Source of the DNA: Thermoanaerobaculia bacterium
Lineage (GTDB): Bacteria; Acidobacteriota; Thermoanaerobaculia; Multivoradales; Multivoraceae
Assembly: GCA_022822365.1 (NCBI GenBank)
Contig: JAJEBV010000008.1
Span: forward strand, 169,524 to 233,523
Length of the DNA: 64,000 bases
Direction: 5' to 3'
The notes under the pieces were generated by a model. That model did no database searches. It was not told where the DNA came from and saw only the letters and a program-made list of their open reading frames with translations. Positions 10,044 to 44,382 of this stretch are shown here, one piece after another. Position 1 is the stretch's first letter. Every line of letters starts with the position of its first letter. Made by a program: the position numbers and the translations under genes.

Positions 10044-12233
10044 GTGAGCCCTCCGCATCCCAGCACGGAGCCACGGTCGACGAGAAGCGCCGGGCGCGTC
10101 GCGGTCCTCCTGCCCTGCCTCAACGAGGAGGCGACGATCGGCAGCGTCGTGGGGCAGTTTCAGACGGCCCTGCCCGAAGCCTCCATCTACGTCTGCGATA
10201 ACGGTTCGGAGGACGGCACCGCCGAAGCCGCCCGCAGGGCCGGCGCCGAGGTCATCGTCGAGGAAGGGCGCGGCAAGGGCCGGGCCGTGCGCCGCCTGTT
10301 CCAGGAAGTCGACGCCGATGTCTACCTGATCGCCGACGGCGACGGCACCTACCACGCCGCCAGCGCCGAGCGTCTCGTTTCCACGCTGGCCGGCCGCTAC
10401 CTGGACATGGTCGTCGCGGTTCGCCGGAGCACGGAGCCCGGCGCCTACACGCCGATCCGCCGCCTCGGCAACCGCCTCTTCAGCCTGCTCGCCCGGTGGC
10501 GCTGCCACCGAGCCGTCCGGGACCTGCTCTCCGGTTACCGCGCTTTCTCCCGCCGGTATGTCGACGCCTTCCCGGCCCGCTCCGACGGCTTCGAGGTCGA
10601 GACCGAGATGACCCTGTTCGCCGCGTCGGCGGGAATGGCCTGGGACGAGATCGAGTGCCCCTACTTCGCGCGCCCGCCAGGGTCGCGAAGCAAACTGCAC
10701 GCCTTCCGGGACGGTCTCCGGATCCTCCAGACGCTCCTCTGGGCGCCCGCTGCGGCCGCGGGTGAGCAGCGCCTCGGCGCCTTGCGGGCCGCCGTCCTGG
10801 TGGCCGCGGTAACGGCCGTCGCCACGGCCTCCTTCCTCGGCCTCAACTGGCTCGCGGCGACCGCCGATCCGGAGCCCGTTGCCGACGCTCTCCGGGCCTC
10901 GTACGAGCACCCGGAACGCACTCTCGAGGACTCCGCCGAGCGCTTCAACGACTGCCTGCTGAGCCTGATGGCGCTCGACCGCGGCGGCACGCTCGTCGAA
11001 CGTACCGTCTCGCCCCGGCGCGTCTACCGCTACACCCGGCCCCAGCGCCCCTGCGACGCCCTCGAGCAGCGGCTGAGCCAGGGGGCGGTCGACGACTCCG
11101 ACTACCTGACCGTCTTCTACCACCAGTACTGGGCCGGCCAGCGGGTGATGCTGCAGGGGCTGCTGCCGCCGCTCGGCGTCGACGGCCTGAGGCGAACGCT
11201 GCGGGTGCTGACGTTCGGCCTGCTCGGGCTCGGGTTCTTCGGCGCGCTGGGACGCATCGTCCTTCTCTTCATCGGCCGCGAGCCCGAAAGCAAGGCGGCC
11301 GGAGGCCGGCCGGAAGGCCGGCGCACCGACAGGGCGGCGCCGCGCCAGAGCGCCGGCAACTCGAGGCGCTGGCGCGAGCACTTCTTCCAGGCGACTGCCC
11401 TCGCCGCCCTCTTCCTCAGCCTGTTCCTGTTCCTCGACCTGGACCGTCGCGCGGGGAGCTTCACCACCGGCGCCTCCAACGTCCTGACTCTCGCCCTGCT
11501 CGTGGCGGTGCCGGCGTTCGGGATCGCCAACTGGAAACCGGGACGCCAGGTCCTCCTCTTCGCCGGTTTCGGCGCCGCGATCGCCTACCACGAACTCCTC
11601 TTCGGCAGCGCCCTGATCGGCCTGGTCTGCGTGCTCCTCGCCCTCTCCACGGCGCCGCCCCCCGTCCACGCCACGGTCGCGGTCGCCCGGCACTGGTGGC
11701 CCGCCCTCTACCTGCGCTGCGGCGGCGCCTACGTCGGTTGCCTCTCCGCCGTCTTCCTGCTCCGCGTCGTCATCGCCGAGTTCGTGTTCAGGGAACCGGT
11801 GCTGTTCAAGTTCTGGGATCAGCTCACGCACCGGCTCTACGGAGCGCCCCGCAGTTCGATCCATCCCGATATCGACGTCTTCTACGCCTCCCGGCCGACC
11901 TTGGAGAGGTTCCTCGAACGGCTCGGAAACAACCTGGGCACCGTCGGCTTCGGCTCGACCGCGGTCGCCCTCATCCTGATCGGCGGCGCGGCACTGATCC
12001 TGATCGCCGCGACCGTCTTCGTCCTGAAGCAACGGCCTTCCCTGGAAGAACCCTGGCGCTGGCTCGGCGTTCTCGCCGCCGGCTGGTGCGTTCCCGCGTG
12101 GTACGTCGTCTTCTCTGCTCACTCGATGGCGCACGTACCGGTGGCGATCCGCCTGCTGGCGCTGCCCTACGCGGCGGCGGCGGTGCTCATCGTGGGCGTT
12201 GCGGTGTTCGGCCGGCGGACCGAGGTTGTTTGA
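10044..12233 (+). CDS. family-2 glycosyltransferase fused to a large polytopic membrane domain
   Basis: The N-terminus (VAVLLPCLNEE...YVCDNGSEDGT...IADGDGTY) is a GT-A/GT2 fold with a DXD motif. The C-terminal ~450 aa has many hydrophobic helices. Confidence 0.75.
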   Translation: MSPPHPSTEPRSTRSAGRVAVLLPCLNEEATIGSVVGQFQTALPEASIYVCDNGSEDGTAEAARRAGAEVIVEEGRGKGRAVRRLFQEVDADVYLIADGDGTYHAASAERLVSTLAGRYLDMVVAVRRSTEPGAYTPIRRLGNRLFSLLARWRCHRAVRDLLSGYRAFSRRYVDAFPARSDGFEVETEMTLFAASAGMAWDEIECPYFARPPGSRSKLHAFRDGLRILQTLLWAPAAAAGEQRLGALRAAVLVAAVTAVATASFLGLNWLAATADPEPVADALRASYEHPERTLEDSAERFNDCLLSLMALDRGGTLVERTVSPRRVYRYTRPQRPCDALEQRLSQGAVDDSDYLTVFYHQYWAGQRVMLQGLLPPLGVDGLRRTLRVLTFGLLGLGFFGALGRIVLLFIGREPESKAAGGRPEGRRTDRAAPRQSAGNSRRWREHFFQATALAALFLSLFLFLDLDRRAGSFTTGASNVLTLALLVAVPAFGIANWKPGRQVLLFAGFGAAIAYHELLFGSALIGLVCVLLALSTAPPPVHATVAVARHWWPALYLRCGGAYVGCLSAVFLLRVVIAEFVFREPVLFKFWDQLTHRLYGAPRSSIHPDIDVFYASRPTLERFLERLGNNLGTVGFGSTAVALILIGGAALILIAATVFVLKQRPSLEEPWRWLGVLAAGWCVPAWYVVFSAHSMAHVPVAIRLLALPYAAAAVLIVGVAVFGRRTEVV

Positions 12234-12350
12234 AATCTCGGAGCTACTCATCATGAGATTGCGGACTGGAGATTCAGAAATCTCGGAGCTAGTGATCTTG
12301 AAATCTCGGAGTACACTAACCGGAAATCTCGGAGTACAACTGAGACTTCG
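12231..12350. repeat. AT-rich cluster of four direct 12-mer repeats GAAATCTCGGAG, with degenerate and inverted partial copies, upstream of the ATPase gene
   Basis: Exact copies at 12232, 12277, 12300 and 12323 (spacings 45, 23, 23). Partial inverted copies occur (gagatt at about 12255 and 12270). Local GC about 45% against a ~70% background. The 11-mer CTTGAAATCTC (12297-12307) recurs inverted at 33913-33923. Confidence 0.7.
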
Positions 12351-12365
12351 GTTAGAGTCGTCGAG

Positions 12366-13520
12366 ATGATCGACCGGGCCGAGTACCTCAGGCGAATGGC
12401 AACCGCCACGAAGCGATCGCCGGTCACGTCCCTGCTCGGACCGCGCCAGTGCGGCAAGACCACCCTGGCCCGTGAGTTCGCTTCGACCCGCGCGGCAACC
12501 CTGTTCGACCTGGGATCGGAGGCGGACGTCCGCCGGCTCAGCAACCCCGAGCTGGTCCTGGGCGAGCTCGAAGGACTCGTCGTCCTGGACGAGATCCAGA
12601 TCATGCCCCGCCTCTTCCGCGTCCTCCGCGTCCTTGCCGACCGGCCGGACTCCCACACGCGTTTCCTGATCCTCGGCAGTGCGTCCCCGGAAATCGTGGG
12701 CGGCGCCGCGGAGTCGCTGGCCGGCCGGGTCGAGTTCATCGACATGACCGGCTTCGACCTGGCCGAGACCGGCGCAGCCGATCTGCGGAAACTCTGGCGG
12801 CGCGGCGGCTTTCCCCGCTCCTACCTTGCCTCTTCCGAAGCCGACAGCTCGCGTTGGCGCAGCGGGTTCCTCCGGACCTTCCTGCGAAGGGATCTCCCGC
12901 AACTCGGTATCGCGATTCCTCCCACAGCAATGCGGCGCTTCTGGACCACCCTGGCGCACTACCACGGCCAGATCTGGAACGCGGCCAAACTCGGCCGATC
13001 GATCGGCGTCTCGGACAAGACGGCTCGCCACTACCTCGACCTGCTGACCGGCGCCTTCATGGTCCGCCAACTCCAGCCCTGGTTCGAGAACACGGCCAAG
13101 CGCCAGGTCAAAGCGCCCAAGACCTACATCCGCGACACCGGCCTCCTGCATTCGCTACTCGGCATCGGCAAGGACCAAGAACTCCTGGGTCACGCCCGCG
13201 TCGGCGCGTCCTGGGAGGGCTTCGCCATCGAGCAGGTCTTGAGCGCCCTCGGCCAACCCGACGCCTGGTTCTGGGCCACCCACGGCGGCGGCGAAGTCGA
13301 CCTGATGGTCCTTGCGCGCGGCCTCCGCATCGGCTTCGAGATGAAGTTCAGCGAAGCGCCCAAGGTCACCACGTCGATACGCAACGCAGCCGAAACGCTG
13401 GCGCTCGACCACCTCTTCGTCGTCTGCCCCACGCGGCACACCTATCCGGTGACCGAGAAGATCACTGTGCTGTCGGCAGGCGACATTCCCGGCTTGCGCG
13501 ACCGGATCGAGGCTCTCTAA
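12366..13520 (+). CDS. AAA-superfamily ATPase, DUF4143/COG1373 family
   Basis: 384 aa. Walker A GPRQCGKTT, Walker B VVLDEIQ. The C-terminal region is typical of the 'ATPase (AAA+ superfamily)' DUF4143 proteins. Confidence 0.8.
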   Translation: MIDRAEYLRRMATATKRSPVTSLLGPRQCGKTTLAREFASTRAATLFDLGSEADVRRLSNPELVLGELEGLVVLDEIQIMPRLFRVLRVLADRPDSHTRFLILGSASPEIVGGAAESLAGRVEFIDMTGFDLAETGAADLRKLWRRGGFPRSYLASSEADSSRWRSGFLRTFLRRDLPQLGIAIPPTAMRRFWTTLAHYHGQIWNAAKLGRSIGVSDKTARHYLDLLTGAFMVRQLQPWFENTAKRQVKAPKTYIRDTGLLHSLLGIGKDQELLGHARVGASWEGFAIEQVLSALGQPDAWFWATHGGGEVDLMVLARGLRIGFEMKFSEAPKVTTSIRNAAETLALDHLFVVCPTRHTYPVTEKITVLSAGDIPGLRDRIEAL

Positions 13521-13596
13521 CAACGCACCTGCGCACACCGACTTCCCCACAGAGCAACGCGGCCACCTTGCGGGCTAGAATCGCGCCGATTAGACG

Positions 13597-13881
13597 ATGA
13601 CTCGACCAATCGAAGTCAAACCCCGCAACGGATTCAAGCTCTGGCTCCGCTTCTCGGACGGTGCCGAAGGCGTCGTTGACCTCTCCCGCCTTGCCGGCAG
13701 GGGCGTCTTCCGATACTGGGCCAACGCGGACGCCTTTGACACAGTTCGGGTGGCCGAGCACGGCGCCGTCGTGTGGGGCGATGACGTGGAGCTATGCCCC
13801 GACGCGTTGTACCTCAAGGTCACCGGCAAGGCCGTTGACGAAGTGATGCCCGGGGCCGCTCAGCTCCTGTGCAATGCATGA
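13597..13881 (+). CDS. DUF2442-family small protein
   Basis: 94 aa. The pattern IEVKPRNGFKLWLRFSDGAEGVVDLS matches the DUF2442 N-terminal signature. Confidence 0.55.
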   Translation: MTRPIEVKPRNGFKLWLRFSDGAEGVVDLSRLAGRGVFRYWANADAFDTVRVAEHGAVVWGDDVELCPDALYLKVTGKAVDEVMPGAAQLLCNA

Positions 13882-13945: not shown

Positions 13946-16900
13946 ATGCAGCCGTCAGCACCGCCGTCCATCCCCCGGGTGGGCATGCTCGCCCGGGTCC
14001 GCAACCGCCGCGGCATCGTCGCTTCCGTCGAGCCATTCGACAACCCACACGGCGCTGACGCCGGCCGGCTGCATCTGGTCCAGGTCGAGTACAAGGACCA
14101 CGACTCTCCGCACAGCGAGCGTCTCCTCTGGGAACTCGAACCGGGGCGCAAGCTGCTCCCACCAAGCCAGCTGCCGCGGGTCCACGACACCTCGCCGATG
14201 CCGGCCGAGGACTTCGACGCCCTGGTCCGCGCCGCACGCTGGACAGCCCTCATGCCGTACCTCGATCCCGACGGCGCCGGCCCGCTCGACCGCCAGCCGG
14301 TGTCGAGCCCGCTGCACAGCGGCATCCGGGTAGAGGACTACCAGCTCGTCCCCCTGCTGCGCGCGCTGCAGATGCCGCGAGTGAACCTCCTCATCGCCGA
14401 CGATGTCGGACTCGGCAAGACCGTCGAAGCCGGGCTCATCCTCAAGGAGCTCCTGCTGCGCCGACGCATCCGCCGAGTGCTCGTCCTGGCGCCCGCGGCA
14501 CTGCGCATGCAGTGGCGCGAGGAGCTCGACACCAAGTTCGCCCTGCCGTTCGAGGTCGTCGACCGCGACCGGACCGAGCGCTTGCGCCGCGAACTCGGCA
14601 TCGACGCAAACCCCTGGCGCTCGTTCAGCCGCATCGTCGCCTCCTACCACTACCTGCGCCAGCCGGACATCCAGGAGCAGTTCCTGGCCGCCAGCCAGAC
14701 GCACGACGGGTCGCCCCGGCTTGCCTGGGACCTCCTGATCGTCGACGAATGCCACAACCTGATGCCCTCGCCCTTCGGCGACGACAGCGAGCTGTGCCAG
14801 ATGCTGCGGCGGATCGCACCCTGCTTCGAACACCGGCTGTTCCTCTCCGCCACGCCGCACAACGGCCACACCCGGTCGTTCACCGGTCTGCTGGAGATCC
14901 TCGACCCGGTGCGCGTCAGCCAGACCGACGAACTGACCAACCGCGCCCGGGCCCGCGTCGGCCAGTTGGTGGTCCGCCGCCTGAAACGCGAGCTGAACCA
15001 GGAGTCCGCCGCGCCCCGGTTCTGCACTCGCAACCCACCGGAACCTCTCCTTCTCCACCGGAGCCGGCGCGAACAAACCCTGTCCGAGGCCTTCCACGCC
15101 TTCCGCACGGCCGTCCGCGGCGCCATCGCGGCCGGCCAGGCCCGCGAACGGGCGGGGACCTTCGCGATCGAGATCCTGGGCAAGCGCCTCCTGTCCTGCC
15201 CGACCGCCTTCGCCGACTCCTGGTACCGCGCGCGCGACGGCTACGCCCGAGCCGAACGGGCCGCAAGAGCCGCGACCGACGCCGACGTGACGGCGGCGCA
15301 ACGCTCAGTCGAGCGCGAAACCTCGGACGACCGGGAGACCGAAGAGCGCACGGGAACCGCTGCCGGCGTCGTCGGCGCCTGGCTGCTCAACGTGGCGGAC
15401 TCGGTCGCCGCCGAGATGACGGCCATCGACAACGTCCTCGAAGCCCTCGGCTTCACGCCGGACGGTCCGCCGGCCATCGAGCAGACTCCCAGGGTCGACG
15501 CCCGCTTCGACGCCCTGTCGGACCTGATCGACCGGCTCCTGCTTCTCCCGGCCGCCACTGACTCGACGCCTGCCTTCCACGACGACGAACGCCTCGTCGT
15601 CTTCACCGAGTACAAGACGACCCTCGACTACCTCGAACGGCGCCTGCGAGAGCGCTACGACTCCCGCGTGCTGACTCTCTTCGGGTCCGGCGGCGCCGGC
15701 GGCATGGACGACACCGACCGCAACCGGGTCCGGGAGGCCTTCAACGACCAGGACTCCGAGGTGCGCATCCTGATCGCTACCGACGCCGCCTCCGAAGGCC
15801 TGAACCTGCACCGCAGCGCGCGCTACCTGTTGCACTACGACTGCCCCTGGAACCCCTCTCGCTTGGAGCAACGCAACGGCCGGCTCGACCGCTACGGCCA
15901 GGCTCGCGACGTGACGGTGCATCACTTCCTGAGCAACGACGACCCGGACCTCCGGTTCCTCGACCACGTGATCAAGAAGGCCGACGAGATCCGCGAAGAC
16001 CTGGGATCGGTGAACGAACTCTTCGATGTCGCCGCTCACCGCCGGCTGATCGAGGGCGAGGACCTGCGAAGGGTCCAGTTCGACCTGAACCACGGACTCG
16101 AACATGAAGTCGAACGGCTACGAAGCCAGGGAATCCCAGGCCTGACCGCTTTTTCCTCGCAGGAGCAACTCGGCGAGGCGGAACTGCTCCGCGTTCGCGG
16201 CGGCCGGGCACTGGCCGACGAGGATCCGGCCAAGCGCCTGGCCGCGCTGGCCACCGAGATCGACTTCGATGCCGCCGCGCTCCGGCTCACGCTCGAAGCT
16301 GCCATGGCCGCCACCGGCGGAGGCCGGCCGCAACTTCGCCACGCTCCGGCCGAAGACGACTTCTGGCGTCTCCTCCGCCCGGATCTCCCGGGCTGGCGCG
16401 ACACGATCGACGAGTCGGTACGGCAGCCGACCAAAGACGGTGTTCACGGCGGGACCCGGTCACTCGCCTTCGACCCCGACTCCCTGCTACGCCGGGTGGG
16501 CGGCCGCGGCGTGTTCTCCCCACGGCAAGAGGTCGCGCTGCTCCACCTGGCGCATCCGATGATCGAGCGCACGCTGCGCGTGCTCACGCAACACCGCCTG
16601 CCGGGCCCAAACGAAAAGGCGCGTTGGACAGTGCGGCGCGGCGGCGTACCCCACGGCGTCGACGCCCTGATCCTGCTCAGCCTGGAGGAACTCGCCGTCA
16701 ACGAACTCCGCGAGACCTTCCACCACTGGGTGCGGACAATCGCCTTTCCCGTTCAGGGAGGCGTTCTAGGCGAACGCGAGCGCCACGTCCCCGCCCGCAA
16801 CCTGGCCGCTTCCGCGCGTGCGGCCCGCACAGACGCCGGCAACGGATCACTTCCCGGCGACTTGTCCGCACCGACGCAAGCCGAGGAGGACCTTGCAAGA

Positions 16901-24830: not shown

Positions 24831-24839
24831 TCTCTTCAC

Positions 24840-25837: not shown

Positions 25838-25838
25838 T

Positions 25839-29725: not shown

Positions 29726-29780
29726 CTGACCACCGCCTGGCCTCTCGGCGAGAGGAACTGGAGGTCTCCTGAGGGGCAGC

Positions 29781-30236: not shown

Positions 30237-30240
30237 CGCA

Positions 30241-33340: not shown

Positions 33341-33349
33341 GGCTGGGAC

Positions 33350-33844
33350 GTGTGTACTCGGGTAGTGCTGGACGCAAGTGCGTTCGACGTCGTCAACGAG
33401 GAATCGCCGGCGTCGGCCGGCGTGCAGCTCCGACATTGGATAGCCGAAGGGCATGGGCGGGTTGCGTACTCCACCTACGATCGTTGCGGGAAGCAACTCA
33501 AGTGGGACGACAAGGTCTGGGCACTCGTTCGCCGCTACAGCCAGAGCGGCCTGGCGAATCGAGTAGCTGACCAAGATGTTCAACGGGAAGAAGAACGGCT
33601 GCGACCCGTCGTGACACGCTCCGGGGAGAACGACAGGCAAATGCTCGCCCTCGCGGCCGCCTCTGATGCGAGGGTGATGGTCGTCAAAGATGGGAACCTG
33701 ACGAAGGACTTTGAGGACGTGGCGATCCTGCCGAAGGTGCCGGGCTATCGGCGTCGGGCCTTCCCGAAGGAGCTTCCGAGCCCGGCACGCAACGACTTCC
33801 TCCACAGGCGTCGCTGCTCACGGCGGCTGTCCTCACGTTCCTGA
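33350..33844 (+). CDS. small protein with a PIN-like signature (tentative)
   Basis: GTG start 10 nt after the ATPase stop. The N-terminal VVLDASAF and the later SGENDRQMLALAAASDARVMVVKDG resemble PIN acidic-residue blocks. Weak call. Confidence 0.35.
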   Translation: MCTRVVLDASAFDVVNEESPASAGVQLRHWIAEGHGRVAYSTYDRCGKQLKWDDKVWALVRRYSQSGLANRVADQDVQREEERLRPVVTRSGENDRQMLALAAASDARVMVVKDGNLTKDFEDVAILPKVPGYRRRAFPKELPSPARNDFLHRRRCSRRLSSRS

Positions 33845-33888
33845 GGCGACGGTGGACGGATCGACCAGCGTCCGGGAGTGCCACTACG

Positions 33889-33923
33889 CTTGAAAATCCA
33901 GCAGTCACCGCCGAGATTTCAAG
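33889..33923. promoter_or_regulatory. inverted repeat CTTGAAAATCC-N13-GAGATTTCAAG upstream of the giant helicase gene
   Basis: The half-site matches the 11-mer CTTGAAATCTC found in the 12.2-kb direct-repeat cluster. Located about 80 bp upstream of the 34004 start. Confidence 0.55.
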
Positions 33924-34003
33924 CGCGATGACCCGCGCCTCGGCGTCGCTTAGAACGCACGCCTCAAGGCTCAGAGCCCACAAGCGTTAGCCTTGCCGGC
34001 TCC

Positions 34004-37000: not shown

Positions 37001-40000
37001 CGGACGCCGCACGACCGCTGCCCGGCCTGGCGGTGCAACGGCACGCTGGAGTGGCTGCGCGAAGACCCGGACGACTACGACCTGCAGCTCCTGGACGGCG
37101 GCTACTCCATGCTGCGCCCGGAGGAGCACACCGCGATGGTTCCGAACCGGGAGCGGGAACGGCTGGAGAACCTGTTCAAGAGCCAGAGCGACGCGGTGAA
37201 CTGCTTCGTCTGCACCGCCACGCTTGAGCTCGGGGTCGACATCGGCGCTCTCGACGCCGTGCTGATGCGCAACGTACCGCCCCTGCCCGCCAACTACTGG
37301 CAGCGAGCCGGCCGCGCCGGCCGACGCCATCGGATGGCCGTTGATCTGACGTACTGCCGGCCCGTGTCTCACGACCGCGCCTACTTCGCCCAGCCCGAGA
37401 AGCTGCTGGCCGGGCGGGTCGACCCGCCGGCCTTCAACCTGAGCAACGACGTGATGGTCCGCAAGCACGTCAACGCTTCCGTTCTGACCGGGTTGCAGCG
37501 GCTCAGTCGGGAGAACGGTGCCGCGCCGGGCAGACTTCCCGCGGCTGAACGGGAGGAGATCGGAGCGGCGCTCGAACGCTGCCTGCCGCGCCGCGTGTCG
37601 GCCTGGCTGTTCGAGGGCGACACCGTGCGTACCGCGCCGTTCGATTTCGGGCCCCTCGCCGAGGTGATCCGGCGGCACCGGCGTACGCTTCTCGCCGAAG
37701 CCGAAGACGCCTTCGCCCAGGGTTGGCCGGCAGCGGACGCCGAGGCGGCTACGCGCGACGTGCTGGGCCGCTGCGTCGACTCCTTCACCGCCGGCCTGAA
37801 AGAAGCCGAACGCTCTCTGCGGCGCCGGCTGGAGTGGGCGCTCGCCCAGATGGAGAGGCTGAACGCGACCCGCCGACCGCGCGGCACGCTCGACCCGGAG
37901 GACAAGGCTCTGTTCCGCCGTTGCGAACAGCTCGTAGAGCGGCTCAAGGGACTTGCGCGCACGAACCGCCGCGACGCCCAGGGGCACTACGACGCGAACA
38001 CGTTCAACGTGTTGGCGGCGCAGGGCTTTCTTCCCGGCTACGGGCTCGAGACCGGGTCCGTCCAGGCGATCGCGGAAGTGCCGGTCTGGCACTCCGGGGC
38101 GCTCGCCTTCAACCTGCCCCGGCCGACCGGCATCGCGCTGCGCGAGTACGTCCCGGGCAACCTGATCTACGCCAACGGGCACCGTTTCGTGGCCAGGAGG
38201 TTCCTGCGCGGTACAGGCGAAGACCGGGAGGAGATGCCCGCGTTCGAGGTCTCGACCGAGCACCAGGCGGTGCGGCAGTGCGACGCCGGCGCTCCGGCAT
38301 CGACGATCGGCGGCGGAACGCTCAGCACGCTCGCGGTCTGCGACGTGGACCTGGCCCATCGGTCCCAGATCTCGGACGACGAGGACTACCGCTTTCAGAT
38401 GGCGGTTGCCGTCCACGGCGTCGAACGCGACGGGCACCGCGGCGGCCGCGCCTTCCAATGGGGCGAGCAGGATGCGTTGCTACGTCACGGCGTCGAACTG
38501 CGACTGGTCAATGTGGGTTCGTCGTCCGCGATCGGCGACGGTTCCGGGCTCGGCTACCCGGTATGTACGGTCTGCGGCCAGAGTGTCTCGCCGCTGTCCT
38601 CCGAGCGCCAGCAGACCGAGTTCACCAAGAGCCACCTGGAGCGGTGCGGGCGCCCGGTGGATCGGATCGGCTTCCACGCTGACGTCACTGCCGATGTCCT
38701 CTCCCTGCCGAGCCTGCCGGAGCCAGCGACCGCCTACAGCGTGCTGGAGGCACTGCGGTTCGGTGCCGCCGGGGTGCTGGACATGCACCTGGACGATTTA
38801 CAGGTCCTGGTCGTGGGCCAGGTCGACCGTCCCGAAGTAAACGCGCTGCTGTGGGACCCGATGCCCGGCGGTTCGGGCCTGCTCGATCAACTCGTCGAGC
38901 GCTTCGACGAAGTCGCCGAGGCCGCGGAAGCCACTGTCGGCGGTTGCGCGTCCGGCTGCGACCACTCGTGCATCGACTGCCTCCAGACCTTCCGAAACGG
39001 CTACTACCACAGCCATCTCAGCCGAAAGACAGCGCTGGAGTGCCTGCGCCAATGGGGGCGCGAACTGGCGCTTTCGCACCCCATTCCCGCTGCCACGCCA
39101 GCCGGTGGCGAGCCCACCGCGCAGCCCGTGAACGAGGCCGAACGCCGCCTCAGGCACCTGCTGACAGCAGCGGGCTTCGCCGAAGGCGTGCGGGGAGAAC
39201 AGATCAACCTCGGCCCGGGCCTGGGCACGACGACGCCCGACGTCATCTACCCGGGCCATGGCGGCATGCCCGATGTCTGCGTCTACCTCGACGGCCTGAG
39301 CGAGCACCTGCACGGGAATCCCCGGACCGCCGAGCGGGACCGGGAGATCCGGTACTGGTTGCGACAGCAGGGCTACGAGGTGGTCGAGATCACCGTGACG
39401 GACCTTGATGACGCCGGAGCGATGGCACGCCACTTCGTGCGGCTCGCGATGTACCTGGGCGCCGAGGAGGTGCGGAAGGCTGTCAGCGTCGGCGGTGCGT
39501 GGTTTGAAGAGGCGGCACCGGCAGGGCCAGCCGCTGCGGCTCCGCCGCCGGAGGAAACTCAGCCAAGCCGGGCCGCCGTACTCCGATTCGTCGAGCCGAC
39601 CCCGGAGAACCGCTACCGAAGCTGCGTGCCGTTTCTGGAAGACCTCGAAGCCGCAGCGGGCAACTTCGGCGACCCTCACGGCGCCTTAGGCGAGATTGGG
39701 GATTCCGGAACCCCTTGGATCGAGGTCGACTTCGGGCGCCAGCCAACGCCCGACATGTTCGCGGCCAGAGTGGCTGGAAGGTCGATGGAGCCACGTATCC
39801 CAGACGGTTCCGTCTGCCTGTTCCGCAGAGGCGTCGCCGGGAGCCGAACTGGCCGCATCGTGTTGGCCCGGCTACGGGACGCCGTCGACCCGGAAACCGG
39901 CGAGCGCTTCACCGTGAAGCGCTATCGAAGCGAGAAGCGGACGGCAGCCGATGGGCCTTGGCGCCATGTCCGGATCACGTTAGAACCGCTGAACCCCGAG

Positions 40001-40117
40001 TTCGCACCCATCGAGCTAGTCGCAGAAAACGACCAAGGTTCGGATGCGATCAACATCCTGGCCGAGTTCGTCGACGTGCTTCACACGGACACTCGGCGCG
40101 AGTCGATGAGGAGCTGA
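34004..40117 (+). CDS. giant multidomain protein: DEAH-box helicase (DrmA-like), Zn ribbons, DUF1998 (DrmB-like), DUF559-like endonuclease and a C-terminal LexA-type S24 peptidase
   Basis: 2037 aa. Walker A TGTGSGKTE (about 34340), DEAH LVFDEAHTF (about 34805), motif VI QRAGRAGRR (about 37300). CxxC pairs CTTCGQ and CRYCGA...CLACGA. DUF1998-like Cys cluster CTVCGQ...CASGCDHSCIDCLQTF (about 38540-39010). DUF559-like AERRLRHLL...VCVYLDGLSEH...YEVVEI (about 39138-39415). S24 domain RVAGRSMEP...GRIVLARL...FTVKRY...LEPLNPEFAPIELV (about 39700-40114) preceded by AAAG (about 39650). Confidence 0.85.
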   Translation: MALNPVVFTEKVLQSFLRYQLRAYPFADPRLHGQMRELLSLDEARQSPLLQGPFVSLSRPFRGGAAVADLADEGLLHPHLEQRIPNDIKELYRHQEKAIRAIVGGRSTLVSTGTGSGKTECFLYPIVSRCLRLRDEGAAAGISAVIVYPMNALAEDQLMRLRSLLAGTGVSFGMYVGKTPEREGDVVGVRLPPGSSQADYEAQLEATRKAKSGESVFPAEEACSREAMRSAGEQPRILLTNVKQLELLLTRQRDAELFHGARLDYLVFDEAHTFTGAMGAETACLVRRLRAFCGRQAADTVCVATSATIVDRERPEAARAFASRFFGVPEESVETVAEDYEEEVWSDERWLPAAAPHGDTAEILADCVAAVEDDVEGPGDAVRRSYRALAGRDLDGDSEPWPEALYGALARSEIVYRLNEALHEPRPLHELPPKLAEAIGRGITEAEILAWLTLAAAARRDGRPLLRPVVHGFVRGIPGAVVSFPGETDQPRLWLAAEDEIEHGGTAPAEGTEPSGEARSARLPVLTCTTCGQHYYEAHLEDFSFTGKRPGGGEPHGDGVVWRKLDEAREGKRVLLVDRLIGGDEHDAEDEGGPAQERRNGNSEAASVLERRTAPVHLCRYCGAAHERPGGNCLACGAPGPRIRLHAVRQKKDRPGVLTSCLSCNALGGRGGGGHYREPARPVRASNAADVHVLAQDMVQQSERRRLLVFCDNRQDAAFQAGWMKDHARRFRLRSLMADGLKDGHRSVGDLTWFLEDALEEDEALSRALIPEVWVVARKEAVGQRHREERRKFLRMQVLREISESARQPLGLEPWGRMKVDYAGLDASLPWIQDQANRLGLPPESMREGVAAALDYVRRQKVLHDAEYKTFTKNWLAGDLEIQQGYLRRTGGPKGVKLKRGPGDDRGRVLQWLSEGGQTTMRQMAVKWGAEPEQAEELLRSLFEMLVERGLLQSVQLLGAHRNPMPNASGVYQVDADRIELSPHRGVYRCRSCRARTVRRTPHDRCPAWRCNGTLEWLREDPDDYDLQLLDGGYSMLRPEEHTAMVPNRERERLENLFKSQSDAVNCFVCTATLELGVDIGALDAVLMRNVPPLPANYWQRAGRAGRRHRMAVDLTYCRPVSHDRAYFAQPEKLLAGRVDPPAFNLSNDVMVRKHVNASVLTGLQRLSRENGAAPGRLPAAEREEIGAALERCLPRRVSAWLFEGDTVRTAPFDFGPLAEVIRRHRRTLLAEAEDAFAQGWPAADAEAATRDVLGRCVDSFTAGLKEAERSLRRRLEWALAQMERLNATRRPRGTLDPEDKALFRRCEQLVERLKGLARTNRRDAQGHYDANTFNVLAAQGFLPGYGLETGSVQAIAEVPVWHSGALAFNLPRPTGIALREYVPGNLIYANGHRFVARRFLRGTGEDREEMPAFEVSTEHQAVRQCDAGAPASTIGGGTLSTLAVCDVDLAHRSQISDDEDYRFQMAVAVHGVERDGHRGGRAFQWGEQDALLRHGVELRLVNVGSSSAIGDGSGLGYPVCTVCGQSVSPLSSERQQTEFTKSHLERCGRPVDRIGFHADVTADVLSLPSLPEPATAYSVLEALRFGAAGVLDMHLDDLQVLVVGQVDRPEVNALLWDPMPGGSGLLDQLVERFDEVAEAAEATVGGCASGCDHSCIDCLQTFRNGYYHSHLSRKTALECLRQWGRELALSHPIPAATPAGGEPTAQPVNEAERRLRHLLTAAGFAEGVRGEQINLGPGLGTTTPDVIYPGHGGMPDVCVYLDGLSEHLHGNPRTAERDREIRYWLRQQGYEVVEITVTDLDDAGAMARHFVRLAMYLGAEEVRKAVSVGGAWFEEAAPAGPAAAAPPPEETQPSRAAVLRFVEPTPENRYRSCVPFLEDLEAAAGNFGDPHGALGEIGDSGTPWIEVDFGRQPTPDMFAARVAGRSMEPRIPDGSVCLFRRGVAGSRTGRIVLARLRDAVDPETGERFTVKRYRSEKRTAADGPWRHVRITLEPLNPEFAPIELVAENDQGSDAINILAEFVDVLHTDTRRESMRS

Positions 40118-40119: not shown

Positions 40120-41007
40120 ATGACCTCAGAGTTGGGAGAACTCGTAACGGCGGACCTGCGAAAGGCGTGGTCGCACGAAGCACACGACTTCACGCCCTGG
40201 CTCGCCGAGAACCTGGACCGCCTGTCGGCCGTGATCGGCCTTGATCTGGACCTTGAGGGATGCGAAGTCCAGGTGGGACCGTACCGTGCGGACATCGTGG
40301 CCAATGATCCATCGGATGGCACTCGGGTGCTCATCGAGAACCAACTCGAGGACGCGAACCTCCAGCATCTAGGCCAGGTCCTGGCCTATCTGGCCGGCTT
40401 GGAGGCGAAGGTGGTTGTCTGGATCGCCAAGGAGTTCGACCAACAGCACCGGTCAGCCATCCGGTGGCTGAACGACCACACCGATGATCCGTTCGCCTTC
40501 TTCGCAGTGCGCGTCCGTGTCGTCCAGATTGGGGAGTCACCACTAGCGCCTGTGTTCGAGGTGCTGGAACGCCCGAACGAGTGGGACCGGAGAGTGCACG
40601 ACGACGTCCGGACCGGGGAACTCAGCGAACTCGGCCAGTTCAGGCGTGACTTCTGGAACCACGTCGCCTCGAAGCACCCCACTGAGGTTCGACCGAACTA
40701 CGCCGCTAGTTCCGTTCGTCACGACGTTGAGGCAACCGACCTGGCGGTCACACAGTTCGTTGCTCGCCACGAAGTCGGCGTCTTCCTGGTCGGCAAGCGT
40801 GGGGAACGCGACAAGGAGGTACTAGCAAGAGTCAAGCCCTACCGAAAGGCCCTTCAGGAGAAGCTCGGCGCCAAGCCGACGGACAAGTGGGGAACGAGCG
40901 TTCTGGCGATGGACACGCGCGATCCAACTAACTGGGATCGAGCCGCAGAGTGGCTCCACGATCAGCGGAAGAAGTACGAGAAGGTGCTACGCGACGTCAG
41001 TGATTGA
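40120..41007 (+). CDS. PD-(D/E)xK nuclease-like protein (NucS/RecB-like fold)
   Basis: ATG 3 nt after the giant gene's stop. 295 aa. YRADIVANDPSDGTRVLIENQLE resembles a D...E-x-K/Q restriction-endonuclease-like core. Lower local GC. Confidence 0.5.
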   Translation: MTSELGELVTADLRKAWSHEAHDFTPWLAENLDRLSAVIGLDLDLEGCEVQVGPYRADIVANDPSDGTRVLIENQLEDANLQHLGQVLAYLAGLEAKVVVWIAKEFDQQHRSAIRWLNDHTDDPFAFFAVRVRVVQIGESPLAPVFEVLERPNEWDRRVHDDVRTGELSELGQFRRDFWNHVASKHPTEVRPNYAASSVRHDVEATDLAVTQFVARHEVGVFLVGKRGERDKEVLARVKPYRKALQEKLGAKPTDKWGTSVLAMDTRDPTNWDRAAEWLHDQRKKYEKVLRDVSD

Positions 41008-41028: not shown

Positions 41029-41394
41029 TCAAGACGCTCCTGACGAAGATGGCCAGGACACCCGAACGCGCTCTCCTCGTATCGTGATCATCGCTCGCGC
41101 CTCCAGAGCTGGGCGTTGCCGCTCAAGCACCTCACTCATCAAGGCGATACGCCTCTCCGCCGGTGTGTCCGGAAGGCGCACTAGGCCCGCATGAGGCACT
41201 GCCTGTACGAAGACGAGTTCACCGAAGTCGGTATCGATCGTAACCAGAATTCGATCGTCTTCAGCGGCAAGCTCCAGCAGCGCACGGTCGCCTGGGTCGG
41301 TCCCAAGCTCCCGTGACTCGACCACATCGTGTCCTTCCTGCCGCAGCCAATCGGCCAACCGGCGACCGGCGCACCGGTCGATGAGGAACCGCAC
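41029..41394 (-). CDS. DUF5615-family PIN-like toxin candidate
   Basis: 121 aa. MRFLIDRCAG...ILVTIDTDFGELV is typical of DUF5615. The start overlaps the stop of an upstream DUF433 gene. Confidence 0.55.
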   Translation of the reverse strand: MRFLIDRCAGRRLADWLRQEGHDVVESRELGTDPGDRALLELAAEDDRILVTIDTDFGELVFVQAVPHAGLVRLPDTPAERRIALMSEVLERQRPALEARAMITIRGERVRVSWPSSSGAS

Positions 41395-41639
41395 TATTCG
41401 CCAACAGTCACGGCGGACAGCGTGTCGCGGGCGATGACCGCGTGGGCGTATGCGGCGCAGGCCCGAACATCGTCCGCTTCCAGACCGGGGTAGTCCTCCA
41501 GGATGGCTTCTTCGGTCACACCCTGCGCCAGCAGGCCGAGGATGAGTTCGACGGAGATCCGCATGTCACGGATGATCGGCTTGCCTCCGAAGACGTCCGG
41601 GCGGGCAGTGATGCGGGCGAGGAGTTCTGTGTTCGTCAT
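41394..41639 (-). CDS. DUF433-family antitoxin candidate
   Basis: Internal ATG at 41639 (MTNTELLARITARPDVFGGKPIIRDMRISVELILGLLAQGVTEEAILEDYPGLEADDV) matches the DUF433 signature. Confidence 0.6.
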   Translation of the reverse strand: MTNTELLARITARPDVFGGKPIIRDMRISVELILGLLAQGVTEEAILEDYPGLEADDVRACAAYAHAVIARDTLSAVTVGE

Positions 41640-41718
41640 GCTCGGGCTCCTCAGGTGGGCAGACTCGTAGCCTACGCTCCGGCCCCCCGGTCGTCCAACT
41701 CCAGAGGCGACTGGTAAC

Positions 41719-44382
41719 TTGGCTCCTATGCCACCAAACCGACGCGCGTTCGCTGTGCTGAGCGGTCTCGCTCTGCTTCTCCTCTCAGCGGGCGCCACGG
41801 TCGCCCAGACACCGTCGAAGCCCAACATCATCGTCATCCTCGCCGACGACCTCGGCGTCGAGACCCTGGGCGTCTACGGCGGCACGTCCTACGAGACGCC
41901 GGAGCTCGACCGGGTCGCCGCGGAGGGGATGCGGTTCGAGAACGGGCACTCGCAGCCGCTGTGCACGCCGACCCGGGTCAAGCTGATGACGGGGCTGCAC
42001 AACCACCGGAACTACCGGGAGTTCATGGAACTTGATCCGGCCGACGTCACGTTCGCCCACGTGCTGGCGCAGGCCGGCTACCGGACGGTGATCTCGGGCA
42101 AGTGGCAGTTGACGAACAACCTCTACGTGGTCCACGAGGGGGCCTCGCCGCAGCAGGCGGGCTTCGACGAGCACCGGCTCTGGCAACTCCGGCGGGAGGG
42201 TCGCGGATCGCGCTACTGGGGACCGACCCTGGTCACGAACGACCGGAAGGAGACCTGGGGTGAAGACATCTTCGGGCCCGATCTGACGAACGACTTCGTG
42301 CTCGAGGCGATCGACGAACACGCTGCGGCGGATCCGGCGACCCGCAAGCCGCTCTTCGTCTACTACCCGATGGCGCTTCCCCACGATCCGTTCGTGACGA
42401 CGCCGCACCATCCGGACGCGGAGTCGAACCAGGAGCGGTTCGCGGCGATGGTGGCCTACATGGACCACCTGGTGGGGCGGGTGCGGGCGAAGCTCGTCGA
42501 GCACGAGCTGGACCGAGACACGCTGCTCCTGTTCATCGGCGACAACGGCACCTCGACCCGGATCACGTCGGTCCGCGACGGCCGGGAGGTCCCCGGAGGC
42601 AAGGGGCGGTCGCTCCAGACCGGCAGCCACGTGCCCTACCTCGCCTGGTGGCCGGGGACGATCCCCGGCGGCCAGGTGAACGAGACCCTGGTCGATGTCG
42701 GCGACGTGTTTCCAACCCTGGTCGAGGCGGCCGGCGCCGGCCTGCCTCCGGGCCTCGACCTGGACGGCGAGAGCCTGCTGCCGATGCTGAAGGGCGGTGC
42801 GCCGCTGGAACGGGACGCCCTGTTCATCCACTACGAGTCACGCTGGTACGCCGGCCCTCCGGCGCGCTATGCCTTCGACGAGCGCTTCAAGCGCTACGAC
42901 GACGGTCGGCTGTTCGACCTCCTCGCCGACCCGAACGAGCAATCGCCGCTCGGCGCCGCGAGCCTCGCGCCGGAAGACGCCGCCCGCGTCGACGCGATCG
43001 ACGCCCTGCTCGCCTCCAAGCCCGGAGCGATCCGCACCGCCGGCGCCTGGAGGCCCCCGACACCCGCCGTCAACCGCTGGACGCCGCCCGCCCACCGGCC
43101 GAACATCCTCCTCTTCATCGCCGACGACATGACGTACAGCGACGCCGGCGCCCTGGGCAACCCCCAAGTCCACACCCCGAACCTCGACCGCCTGGCCGAG
43201 CAGGGAACGACCTTCACCCACATGTACACCGCCACCGCGATGTGCTCGCCCACCCGGCACATGCTCTACACCGGCCAGTACCCGGTGCGAAGCGGCGCCT
43301 ACCCGAACCACGCCAAGGCGAATCCCGGCACGAAGAGCGTCGTCCACTACCTGAGCGGCCTCGGCTACCGGGTCGGCCTGGCCGGCAAGTCCCACGTGGC
43401 GCCCGAGGAGGTCTACCCGTTCGAGAAGGTCGCGGGACGCGACCTCGACCCGGGCCGGATCGGCGAGTTCGTCGGCCGCGATCCGGAGCAGCCCTTCGCG
43501 CTGATCGTCGCCTCGACCGAGCCCCACCAGCCCTGGAGCAAGGGCGATCCGTCACGCTACGACGCGGCGTCGCTCAAGCTGCCGCCCTACTTCGTCGACA
43601 CGCCGGAGACGCGCGAGGCGTTGACCCGCTACTACGCCGAGATCACCTTCATGGACGGCCAACTCGGCCAAGTCCTCGACCTGCTCCGGGAGCACGCCGC
43701 GCACGAGAACACGCTGACCATGTTCTACAGCGAGCAGGGGATCAGCGGCCCCTTGGCCAAATGGACGCTGTACGAAGCGGGCATCCGCACCTCGCTCGTG
43801 GCCCGCTGGTCCCGCAGGATTCCGGCCGGGCGGACGTCAGCCGCGCTGCTCCAGATCAACGACCTTCTGCCGACCTGGATCGAGGCCGCCGGTGGCGCCG
43901 TGCCGCCCGAGATCGAGGGCGAGAGCATGCTCGACCTGCTGCTCGAGCCCGGCCCGAAGCACCGCGACGTCGTCTACGGCATTCAGACGACGACCGGCAT
44001 CATCGCGAACCTGGCGCCCTATCCGATCCGGTCGATCCGCGACGAGCGCTACAAGCTGATCTGGAACATCGCCCACGAGAACCGCTTCACGAACCTGGTC
44101 ACGCAGGAGAACCGCGACGGCTTCTACTTCTCGTGGCGCGACGCCGGGGAAACGGATCCGGCTGCCCAGGCGCTCTACGAGCGCTACCAGCATCGGCCGG
44201 AGTTCGAGTTCTTCGATCTGGAGGCGGATCCGCATGAGATGACGAACCTGGCGGACACACCGCAGCACCAGGAGCGGCTCGCTTCGCTGCACAAGCAGTT
44301 GCGCGCATGGATGGAAGATCAGGGCGATCTCGGGCTGGAAACCGAGATCGAAGCCCCGGAGCACCAGTCGCGGCCGCGCTAG
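41719..44382 (+). CDS. tandem-domain arylsulfatase (two complete sulfatase domains)
   Basis: 887 aa with a signal peptide. Domain 1 has PNIIVILADDLG and the formylglycine motif CTPTR. Domain 2 has PNILLFIADDMT and CSPTR. Confidence 0.85.
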   Translation: MAPMPPNRRAFAVLSGLALLLLSAGATVAQTPSKPNIIVILADDLGVETLGVYGGTSYETPELDRVAAEGMRFENGHSQPLCTPTRVKLMTGLHNHRNYREFMELDPADVTFAHVLAQAGYRTVISGKWQLTNNLYVVHEGASPQQAGFDEHRLWQLRREGRGSRYWGPTLVTNDRKETWGEDIFGPDLTNDFVLEAIDEHAAADPATRKPLFVYYPMALPHDPFVTTPHHPDAESNQERFAAMVAYMDHLVGRVRAKLVEHELDRDTLLLFIGDNGTSTRITSVRDGREVPGGKGRSLQTGSHVPYLAWWPGTIPGGQVNETLVDVGDVFPTLVEAAGAGLPPGLDLDGESLLPMLKGGAPLERDALFIHYESRWYAGPPARYAFDERFKRYDDGRLFDLLADPNEQSPLGAASLAPEDAARVDAIDALLASKPGAIRTAGAWRPPTPAVNRWTPPAHRPNILLFIADDMTYSDAGALGNPQVHTPNLDRLAEQGTTFTHMYTATAMCSPTRHMLYTGQYPVRSGAYPNHAKANPGTKSVVHYLSGLGYRVGLAGKSHVAPEEVYPFEKVAGRDLDPGRIGEFVGRDPEQPFALIVASTEPHQPWSKGDPSRYDAASLKLPPYFVDTPETREALTRYYAEITFMDGQLGQVLDLLREHAAHENTLTMFYSEQGISGPLAKWTLYEAGIRTSLVARWSRRIPAGRTSAALLQINDLLPTWIEAAGGAVPPEIEGESMLDLLLEPGPKHRDVVYGIQTTTGIIANLAPYPIRSIRDERYKLIWNIAHENRFTNLVTQENRDGFYFSWRDAGETDPAAQALYERYQHRPEFEFFDLEADPHEMTNLADTPQHQERLASLHKQLRAWMEDQGDLGLETEIEAPEHQSRPR

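Follow-up and report, generated by a model that had tools for sequence, protein, structure and literature searches.

Defence islands are usually explained by the successive integration of mobile elements at tRNA genes. The islands that carry the defence system ARMADA have been explained in this way (Bell et al. 2025, bioRxiv 10.1101/2025.09.15.676423). In the locus described here, an island of similar richness occupies one fixed position on the chromosome throughout a clade of uncultured Acidobacteriota and has no recombinase. It lies in a stretch of 64,000 nucleotides (hereafter the window) from the genome of a Candidatus Multivorans-like member of the Thermoanaerobaculia (Acidobacteriota; GenBank assembly GCA_022822365.1, contig JAJEBV010000008.1, positions 169,524 to 233,523 of the forward strand), at a hotspot between the genes for a GT2 glycosyltransferase and a sulfatase. 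We consider it probable that window positions 12244-41706 are an integrase-free chromosomal defence island at a lineage-wide hotspot, with an ARMADA-type backbone (ArmA, ArmB and ArmC) in which the gap between ArmB and ArmC acts as a landing pad for other modules.

Extent, flanks and base composition of the island

Genes were called by third-position GC content (GC3) in the window, which is 68% GC, and were then scanned with Pfam, PADLOC and NCBIfam. The extent of the island was determined by blastn against a near-empty site of a relative (L028; related loci are designated by L numbers), in which the GT2 is 97% identical to that of the window and only 139 nt separate GT2 from sulfatase. Homology was lost at window position 12243 and regained at 41707, which gives an island of 29.46 kb at 12244-41706. 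An earlier note, made from the sequence alone, had placed an island of about 29 kb at 12232-41837, and the two intervals are nearly identical. The left flank encodes a malate synthase, a tricorn-type protease, a BamB/PQQ-like protein and a 729-aa GT2 glycosyltransferase, and the right flank a sulfatase, a Fic protein and two ABC exporters; both sides are housekeeping, as that note had stated, and are syntenic in 40 related loci.

The note had also reported that integrase, tRNA and transposase genes are absent, and the searches agree. No integrase or transposase domain was found in any open reading frame (ORF) of the island by the Pfam and PADLOC scans, ARAGORN placed no tRNA in the island, a scan of the whole window with Rfam gave no match that passed the gathering thresholds, and the island is not bounded by direct repeats. 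The sole ARAGORN call in the window, a tRNA-Gly(GCC) at 5638-5715, falls in the left flank within the conserved tricorn-protease ORF (5073-8534) and is most likely a false positive, since Rfam reports no tRNA there.

The note had recommended a profile of GC and codon usage; mean GC3 was 0.79 for island genes versus 0.91 for flank genes (Mann-Whitney p=6e-7). The local GC dips that it had listed held in part. The dip at 12.24 kb is strong (spacer GC 0.47), those at 22.7, 28.3 and 40.1-41.0 kb are present but mild (0.59-0.62), and those at 27.3 and 28.8 kb are absent (0.69).

Comparison of the junction among relatives

A scan with the GT2 protein yielded 40 loci from species-representative genomes, namely Candidatus Multivorans, Thermoanaerobaculia and 'Holophagales' metagenome-assembled genomes (MAGs). 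The left flank, in the order malate synthase, tricorn, BamB and GT2, was common to all 40, and the right side of the junction was sulfatase-(Fic)-ABC exporters in these and in seven metagenome loci. The latter were contigs found by a metagenome scan with the motif at the island's left edge, and they had the same junction, yet other content. The junction was identical in 47 loci with GT2 identities of 60-98%.

Between these flanks the content varied. The sulfatase was reached within 0.14-2.6 kb in 13 of the 40 loci, 19 carried a SNF2 (ArmA) gene, nearly always together with a methyltransferase (ArmB) gene, behind varying leading genes, five held other cargo, and three were cut too short to tell. 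Other cargo comprised GmrSD, a different SMODS cyclase, a DEAD helicase, a reverse-transcriptase-like protein of 1270-1300 aa and a 907-aa protein (both described below), PIN/MazE, zeta toxin-antitoxin and DUF4160/DUF2442 pairs, and IS110, ISL3 and IS256 transposases. No integrases were found among the scanned proteins of the relatives' hotspots, though insertion sequence (IS) transposases were present. Content differed even at 95-98% flank identity: L028 is near-empty, L021 is reduced, and L014 is without the DUF4143 and DUF2442 genes. L059, L060, L075 and L076 also differed from one another in cargo. The earlier note had held that its proposal of a chromosomal hotspot, rather than a recent mobile element, would fall if relatives carried the same genes in the same order. 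No such conservation was found across the 40 genome and seven metagenome loci, and the proposal is supported by syntenic flanks with content that differs among relatives.

Variability does not extend to the whole locus. About half of the relatives have an ArmA-ArmB(-ArmC) backbone (ArmA and ArmB at the junction in 19 of the 37 informative loci), and ArmA identity is moderately correlated with flank identity (Spearman 0.57, p=0.02). Both observations would be expected of an ancestral, vertically inherited cluster that is not a variable hotspot. That explanation is already largely refuted and has very little probability left, given the differences in content among genomes with 95-98% identical flanks and an ArmB-ArmC cargo that was different in every genome inspected. 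In addition, ArmA falls into two allele classes, with about 74% and 86-95% identity to the window, that cut across flank similarity; L004 combines a flank identity of 93.8% with an ArmA identity of 73.8%, and L024 combines 89.1% with 86.6%. The two classes suggest exchange within the clade.

Deletion forms part of island turnover, because L021 and L028 retain collinear relics. L021 has kept three of them, which correspond in order to window 12244-13685, 29448-29614 and 33884-33932 and have the sulfatase directly behind them, and L028 has kept only the last (window 33884-33932). Two independent insertions into an ancestral empty site had been proposed, since the L028 spacer element reappears at 33884-33932. 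This proposal was dropped in view of the three collinear relics in L021 and of L055, in which a block of Bub-like genes and ArmC is contiguous without the 33884-33932 element. A fuller island that lost genes by deletion is the better explanation, at least for L021.

These comparisons also bear on whether the island is an immobilised integrative element, i.e. a satellite or a remnant of an integrative and conjugative element that lost its integrase, like the tRNA-targeting ARMADA carriers of E. coli. Most ARMADA islands lie in integrase-bearing elements, which are often immobilised (Bell et al., bioRxiv 10.1101/2025.09.15.676423), an old integrated element would likewise have the lower GC3 seen in the island, and IS elements occur at the relatives' hotspot; the last two points tell against the preferred reading. 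Such an origin nevertheless appears improbable, for there is no integrase fragment, tRNA or flanking direct repeat, a single junction is used in 47 loci of widely differing GT2 identity, variation is modular inside the island and is not whole-element presence or absence, and the relics in L021 and L028 indicate internal deletions.

Left-edge tandem motif

The left edge of the island is marked by a tandem array that starts at the GT2 stop codon. The motif GAAATCTCGGAG occurs four times at 12232-12334, in an array with the unit GAAATCTCGGAG(C/T), a period of 22-23 nt and 45 nt between the first two copies. When at most one mismatch was allowed, six matches were found versus 0.36 expected, and none of 100 shuffles reached six; the repeat cluster that had been noticed at 12.2 kb is thus real. 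An array of two to six copies is present at the same place in about 30 of the 40 relatives, including the near-empty L028, and in the seven metagenome loci, and it follows the GT2 stop irrespective of the next gene. In L020 and L032 (8608-8774), an array precedes a DUF4143 gene that has moved to the other side of GT2. The array had no Rfam match.

Within 840 kb of related loci, all occurrences of the motif lay either at this junction or beside the DUF4143 gene that has moved in L020 and L032. A metagenome-wide scan gave ten matches, of which seven were the same junction and three were unrelated simple repeats. On these two scans the motif is confined to this locus, and its reading as a dispersed repeat, or as a signal that generally accompanies DUF4143 genes, was rejected.

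A hairpin-like 49-nt element at 33884-33932, 70-120 nt upstream of ArmC, holds a single inverted copy of the motif. This element is common only to L028 (12257-12305; 88% identity over 49 nt) and L021 (14150-14196), and in other relatives only about 25 nt before the ArmC start are conserved.

The probable ARMADA-type backbone

In ARMADA, ArmA is a BrxHII/RapA-like helicase, ArmB is a PglX-like methyltransferase, ArmC is a YprA-like helicase with a C-terminal Vsr-type nuclease, and ArmD is found only in Type II (Bell et al. 2025, bioRxiv 10.1101/2025.09.15.676423). The proteins used for comparison were those of the validated armABCD of E. coli EDL933 (PMC13463889).

The ArmA-like gene (13946-17347, plus strand) encodes a SNF2/RapA-type, DrmD/BrxHII-like helicase of 1133 aa with the Pfam domains SNF2-rel_dom and Helicase_C. 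Its PADLOC matches were DrmD (1.1e-190) and BrxHII (3e-72), and it was 27.5% identical to EDL933 ArmA over 592 aa (BLASTP, E=4e-50). Its stop is overlapped by the start of the ArmB-like gene (17344-22683, plus strand), which encodes an Eco57I/PglX-like N6-adenine DNA methyltransferase of 1779 aa (Pfam Eco57I 1.9e-18; PADLOC REase_MTase_IIG 1353 bits, DrmMI 418 bits). The motifs NPPW (aa 960) and GSGSF (aa 588) correspond to N971 and G605 in E. coli ArmB, and the BLASTP alignment with EDL933 ArmB (25% over 477 aa, E=5e-25) spans GxG to NPPW.

The C-terminal half of this methyltransferase (window 19600-22683) is only 68% identical in L001 (19663-22170), and the whole of it is 73% identical in L014 (15771-21080); flanks and ArmA are 93-98% identical in both loci. 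The divergence fits swapped target-recognition regions, which would change the methylation specificity.

The ArmC-like gene (34004-40117, plus strand) encodes 2037 aa, comprising a YprA-family helicase (DEAD, Helicase_C and DUF1998/MZB), a Vsr-type nuclease and a C-terminal LexA-like S24 domain. Pfam matches were DEAD (1.6e-21), Helicase_C (7e-11) and MZB (2.3e-7), and BLASTP gave 142 and 131 bits with EDL933 ArmC (7e-37 and 3e-33) and 124 and 112 bits with DruE. Vsr-type and LexA-type folds are present at the C-terminus; a phmmer search of the nuclease region against the Protein Data Bank (PDB) gave nothing useful. In the S24 module, the Ala-Gly site at Ala1885-Gly1886, the GxSMxP serine Ser1927 and the KR lysine Lys1972 are invariant in 25 homologues, and the module has the Ser-Lys dyad, the upstream Ala-Gly site and the S24 fold of LexA/S24 peptidases. 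The helicase matched about 2,900 database clusters at E<=1e-30. Among the best 120, which are 60-92% identical, nearly all carry S24; the family is about 1975-2035 aa long, and matches of at least 60% identity were found even in an Actinomycetota MAG and a Deltaproteobacteria MAG.

Four distant homologues of the ArmC-S24 protein (L061-L064), one of them labelled Actinomycetota MAG, were chosen irrespective of context. The gene order was SNF2, methyltransferase, Fic and helicase in L061; methyltransferase, IS3, two ORFs, RelB/YafQ and helicase in L062; SNF2, methyltransferase, AAA_21, a 163-aa ORF and helicase in L063; and methyltransferase, genes for DUF433, PIN, M78, DUF4143, HicB and Phd, and helicase in L064. 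A homologous ArmB was located upstream of ArmC-S24 in all four, and ArmA was within the stretch fetched in two of four. Identities to the window were 47-56% for SNF2, 56-68% for the methyltransferase and 61-63% for the helicase. The AAA_21 gene and 163-aa ORF of L063 were considered as homologues of the ATPase and orf164 of the window (see below); there was no tblastn match, and the pair is merely analogous.

ArmB and ArmC were never adjacent. The gap between them is 11.3 kb in the window and 1.4-14.8 kb in seven other contexts, and it was filled with foreign defence or toxin-antitoxin genes in all eight contexts, four of which are from unrelated genomes. Three relatives at the same hotspot carry 6-15 kb of cargo in the gap, different in each: DUF3644, a Bub-like module and a zeta pair in L059; genes with AbiJ, ApeA and nSTAND domains and a zeta pair in L075; and about 14.8 kb in L032 with L076, including a Dcm/ATPase pair, DUF4143 and an IS256 fragment.

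The earlier note had correctly listed the SNF2, methyltransferase and helicase-S24 genes, but as separate items; judged from their sequences and contexts, they most likely form one system. A first reading of the SNF2, methyltransferase and DUF1998 helicase genes as a split DISARM (defence island system associated with restriction-modification) of class 1 was rejected, as there is no DrmA, DrmB or DrmC and the nuclease is Vsr-type. The search for the DISARM core found no PLD protein, an NCBIfam DrmA match to the helicase at E=0.04-0.06 and a PADLOC DrmA score of 45 bits on it. ARMADA fits better than split class-1 DISARM.

Several findings weigh against this assignment. The contiguous three-gene operon of ARMADA is not present, although the order ArmA-ArmB-ArmC is kept, and ArmA-ArmB and ArmC cannot share one transcript, because 11.3 kb and a minus-strand operon lie between them. 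Identity to the validated E. coli ARMADA proteins is only 23-36%, and no window query, including the protein encoded downstream of ArmC (PDC-S11), matched EDL933 ArmD by BLASTP. PADLOC ranks the ArmC-like helicase best as DruE, and the NCBIfam DISARM DrmA models barely match it. In L055, a Bub-like block, ArmC-S24 and PDC-S11 are present with neither ArmA nor ArmB within 13 kb upstream, and the contexts of ArmC inspected number only eight. Any placement in the ARMADA clade, or in one of its subtypes, is tentative; its only indication is that BLASTP scores ArmC a little above DruE.

Part of this evidence would agree with the genes being independent neighbours, i.e. with the SNF2 and methyltransferase genes being a DISARM-class-1 remnant or a Type IIG-like pair, the helicase-S24 gene being a solitary Druantia-like gene, and their co-occurrence reflecting general defence clustering. 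The best PADLOC scores (REase_MTase_IIG for the methyltransferase, DruE for the helicase), the 11.3-kb separation with opposite-strand genes between, the isolated ArmC-S24 of L055, and L019, in which ArmA is followed by Bub-like genes with no ArmB match, would all be accounted for. We regard this explanation as unlikely. It does not predict a same-strand ArmB homologue upstream of ArmC-S24 in each of the four distant loci or the parallel divergence of the three proteins (47-68% identity); moreover, all three match validated E. coli ArmA, ArmB and ArmC, the ArmC carries the Vsr-type nuclease typical of ARMADA, and no DruH, DrmA, DrmB or DrmC was found. A single ARMADA-type system is therefore preferred.

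Two observations concern the surroundings of the backbone genes. Transposases interrupt or abut ArmB or the cargo in some loci: an IS110 element cuts ArmB in two in L034 (17195-18622), and ISL3/IS256 (L011 13184-17799) and IS3 (L062 3649-4856) are further cases. Genes for DUF4143/AAA_14 ATPases recur near ArmC-S24 genes (L061 21055-21922; L064 7960-9213; L076 8204-9331 and 24256-25434), two of the genomes being unrelated, which suggests a loose association of the PADLOC candidate PDC-S01 with ARMADA-type loci.

The Bub-like ubiquitin-like module

A five-gene module upstream of ArmC (29781-33844) resembles Type I Bub. Its first gene (29781-30236, plus strand) encodes a BubA-like ubiquitin-like (Ubl) protein with two apparent beta-grasp repeats (weak Pfam Multi_ubiq, E=0.006) and, in the alignment, an invariant C-terminal ...G-x-TPVA. 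The second (30241-30621, plus strand) encodes a BubB-like E2-fold protein of 126 aa that has no cysteine; it is closest to BubB, and an E2 fold without catalytic cysteine is a mark of Type I Bub. Ubl and E2-like domain are separate genes in the window and are fused in L056, as in BubAB. The third gene (30618-32075, plus strand), whose GTG start overlaps the E2 stop, encodes a BubCD-like fusion of a JAB peptidase and an E1 (485 aa; 485-493 aa in homologues; Pfam ThiF 2.4e-32). In the PDB it was best matched by Citrobacter BubCD (5.4e-16) across JAB and E1 alike; the metal ligands H91/H93/D104 of the JAB domain have their counterparts in HSHP...S.AD.

The fourth gene (32072-33340, plus strand), which overlaps the E1 stop, encodes an ABC/OLD-type AAA_21 ATPase (Pfam AAA_21 2.8e-16, PADLOC NsnB 4.7e-39) and stands behind the E1 gene also in L055-L060 and L076. 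The fifth, orf164 (33350-33844, plus strand), encodes 164 aa with no match in Pfam, PADLOC, NCBIfam or PDB profile searches; its homologues (32-66% identity) stand behind the ATPase in the same seven loci. The invariant acidic residues D8, D95, D114 and D120 make a PIN-like fold conceivable on motif inspection only. Profile searches of PDB sequences with alignments of the E2-like, Ubl and orf164 proteins gave nothing useful, and Foldseek of the E2-like model against the PDB gave weak mixed matches only.

All Bub (bacterial ubiquitination-like) operons, of which Type I is also known as '6E/DUF6527', are stated to encode the serine protease BubE (Ye et al. 2024, bioRxiv 10.1101/2024.11.21.623953). 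No Pfam match to BubE (DUF6527) was found in the scanned island proteins, at E up to 5 for the unassigned ones, and DUF6527 was absent from the precomputed Pfam annotation of the neighbours in L055-L060 and L076. The five genes are conserved as a unit in these loci. The module is upstream of ArmC in the window, L055 and L059 and downstream of it in L076 (16354-20411), so it is independent of ArmC and moves as a unit within the hotspot. By its sequence, the module is classed as an independent five-gene unit, a predicted BubE-less relative of Type I Bub.

CBASS and other genes of the island

Between ArmB and the Bub-like module lies a complete type III cyclic oligonucleotide-based antiphage signalling system (CBASS), with CD-NTase, two HORMA proteins, TRIP13 and a 4TM effector, all but one of them in a minus-strand operon. 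The SMODS CD-NTase (23973-24839, minus strand; Pfam SMODS 1.5e-13, PADLOC Cyclase 4.3e-86) is preceded by a bacHORMA_2 protein (24840-25349, minus strand; Pfam 1.4e-24, PADLOC HORMA 6.9e-78), the ORF of which extends to 25526 with the model match beginning near aa 60. The second HORMA gene (25346-25838, minus strand; PADLOC HORMA PDLC00885 2.6e-32) has an ORF extending to 26044 and a match beginning near aa 70. The TRIP13/Pch2-like AAA+ ATPase (25839-26957, minus strand; Pfam AAA 3.7e-23, PADLOC TRIP13 2.3e-110) probably has its true start near 26780. Divergent from this operon is an XRE-type helix-turn-helix regulator (26922-27263, plus strand; HTH_31 and HTH_3, about 4e-10), whose ORF starts at 26733 with the domain from aa 64 and which had a weak PADLOC capH match (2.9e-4). 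The 4TM membrane effector follows (S_4TM; 27401-28246, minus strand; Pfam 4.8e-50, PADLOC Effector 4TM 8e-43).

Three further genes occupy the gap. Behind ArmB is a gene for a DUF3644 protein, PADLOC candidate PDC-S19 (22800-23846, plus strand; Pfam 2e-48, PADLOC 2.6e-120), which is found behind ArmB also in L059, L020 and L025. The gene orf170 (28837-29349, plus strand) had no Pfam, NCBIfam or PADLOC match and recurs in the hotspot of relatives, with homologues of 56-72% identity in L003, L055, L065, L066 and L075. The gene orf112 (29390-29728, minus strand), called from its GC3 frame signal, has homologues in the small genes that accompany zeta toxin genes in relatives: tblastn gave 71-81% with such genes of 68-72 aa, which adjoin a Zeta_toxin gene in L059 and L075, and with similar small genes in L060 and L076. 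No toxin gene adjoins it in the window, and a relic of it persists in L021.

Outside the backbone, the island begins with a gene for an AAA_14/DUF4143 ATPase, candidate PDC-S01 (12366-13520, plus strand; DUF4143 2e-40, AAA_14 4.5e-20, PDC-S01 1.3e-77), and one for a small DUF2442 protein (13597-13881, plus strand; Pfam 1.3e-11), which in relatives is often paired with DUF4160 (L003, L015, L019 and L037). Behind ArmC are the candidate PDC-S11 protein of 295 aa (40120-41007, plus strand; PADLOC 1.3e-86), with an 85% homologue in the same position in L055, a putative DUF5615 PIN-like toxin (41029-41394, minus strand; Pfam 1.2e-18) and a putative DUF433 antitoxin (41394-41651, minus strand; Pfam 7.3e-23). 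The DUF433 ORF extends to 41837, with the domain from aa 76, and flank homology resumes at 41707. Pfam and NCBIfam gave nothing useful for the E2-like protein, orf164, orf170, orf112 and PDC-S11.

Apart from its PD-(D/E)xK protein, which matched PDC-S11 and is of that fold only putatively, the gene families named in the earlier note were borne out by Pfam and PADLOC. Its statement that every gene is defence-like applies to most of them and was too strong, in that orf170 has no assignable function and orf112 is a homologue of zeta-toxin small partner genes.

Further observations at and near the hotspot

Several relatives have, as an alternative occupant of the hotspot, a protein of 1270-1300 aa whose match to reverse transcriptases is weak (RVT_1, E=2e-4; L006 13399-17205, L011 18687-22175, L033 13622-17515, L060 2746-6603). 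In three relatives, a DUF2442/DUF4160 pair directly behind GT2 is followed by a protein of 906-907 aa without Pfam match (L003 12826-15546, L016 12828-15548, L019 12849-15572), which may be another defence candidate. The genome of L010 and L059 has, directly downstream of the island, a called gene with a product of 9129 aa (L059 21403 onward, minus strand). On the right flank of the window, the Fic gene directly right of the sulfatase (44379-45368) has a GC3 of 0.83, below that of its neighbours, and a homologue is missing at that position in many relatives (e.g. L023, L029, L030 and L040). The interval from sulfatase to ABC exporters may be a second small variable spot.

Proposed mode of action and turnover

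In the proposed model, the unity of the split ARMADA genes, the role of S24 and all activities are predictions. By analogy with ARMADA of E. coli, ArmB would mark self DNA, and incoming DNA that lacks the mark would be attacked by ArmA and ArmC, with the host surviving. The S24 module may cleave itself, possibly stimulated by RecA-ssDNA filaments, and its cleavage would tie the nuclease activity of ArmC to DNA damage or infection. The 11.3-kb gap between ArmB and ArmC would serve as a landing pad for independent modules, here DUF3644/PDC-S19, type III CBASS, an orphan gene related to zeta partners and the five-gene Bub-like module. In CBASS, sensing by HORMA proteins would activate the CD-NTase, whose nucleotide signal would in turn activate the membrane effector (4TM), with TRIP13 returning the system to its resting state. 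The Bub-like module would conjugate Ubl to targets by the oxyester route described for Bub, the pair of AAA_21 ATPase and orf164 appearing to occupy the place of BubE in described Bub operons. DUF4143/PDC-S01, DUF2442, PDC-S11 and the DUF433/DUF5615 toxin-antitoxin pair are the outer modules. Turnover would proceed by homologous recombination at shared flanks and modules, by occasional IS activity and by deletion, and not by site-specific integration.

A more far-reaching proposal is put forward tentatively, at somewhat less than even probability: that the locus represents a widespread, undescribed ARMADA subtype with an ArmC ending in a self-cleaving S24 module that would link the helicase-nuclease to RecA/ssDNA signals, that its ArmB-ArmC junction is a conserved landing pad for other immune and toxin-antitoxin modules, by which one system would seed and organise an integrase-free island, and that it contains a BubE-less Bub-like pathway with an AAA_21 ATPase and a putative nuclease of about 165 aa in place of the serine protease. 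This replacement suggests an effector-coupled ubiquitin-like immune system.

Within the island, variability lies for the most part in a single system. Should the gap between ArmB and ArmC prove to be a preferred landing pad, new immune genes of uncultured phyla could be sought by this simple marker in their genomes, and one defence system would be seen to scaffold others. The S24-fused ArmC offers a testable hypothesis for DNA-damage gating of a restriction-like helicase-nuclease. The BubE-less module adds to the known range of the Bub pathway, with the ATPase and putative nuclease as a possible output.

Comparison with known systems

The closest parallels to the island as a whole are core defence hotspots such as cDHS1 and cDHS2 of Pseudomonas aeruginosa (Johnson et al. 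2023, PMC10250203) and the hotspots of E. coli (Hochhauser et al. 2023, PMC10121019). As in these, fixed core-gene flanks enclose a region of variable size and content that holds several defence systems, has a lower GC content than the host and has no obvious membership in one mobile-element class; the island of the window measures 29.5 kb versus a median of 26 kb for cDHS1 (PMC10250203). The features that define core hotspots, i.e. conserved flanks, variable defence-rich content and the lack of integrase, att repeats and tRNA target, are all found. Unlike core hotspots, the present one belongs to an uncultured, mostly host-associated lineage of Acidobacteriota, has much of its variability inside one defence system (the ArmB-ArmC gap), carries a conserved 22-nt tandem motif at its left junction and keeps collinear relics at reduced sites.

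With ARMADA the window shares a BrxHII/RapA-like SNF2 protein, a PglX-like NPPW methyltransferase and a YprA-type helicase with DUF1998 and Vsr-type nuclease, and the order ArmA-ArmB-ArmC is that of Type II and of 'reversed' Type I. It differs in that ArmD (GajB-RelE) is absent, the downstream gene encoding the 295-aa PDC-S11 protein, and in the extra LexA-like S24 domain of ArmC; S24, LexA and peptidase are not mentioned in the main text of the ARMADA preprint and those of its supplements that were available to us (bioRxiv 10.1101/2025.09.15.676423). Unlike ARMADA of E. coli, the island is not in a tRNA-integrated mobile element. Likeness to DISARM class 1 and Druantia type III lies in the strong DrmD-like and DrmMI-like scores and in the helicase, which resembles a DrmA-DrmB fusion and scores as DruE. 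Unlike DISARM class 1, the window has no separate DrmA or DrmB and no PLD nuclease DrmC, and unlike Druantia type III, it has no DruH match among the scanned island proteins and a nuclease that is Vsr-type, not PLD.

As in Type I Bub, there is a JAB-E1 fusion and a cysteine-less E2-fold protein, along with a putative multi-beta-grasp Ubl protein; unlike Type I Bub, the module is without BubE and has a conserved AAA_21 ATPase and a protein of about 165 aa instead, and Ubl and E2 are separate genes. All components of type III CBASS are present with strong model matches and nothing essential differs, the effector gene being split from the other four by the divergent XRE gene. Islands of this type are thus known; the variants that are new are the S24-ended form of ArmC, the Bub-like module without BubE and the nested arrangement.

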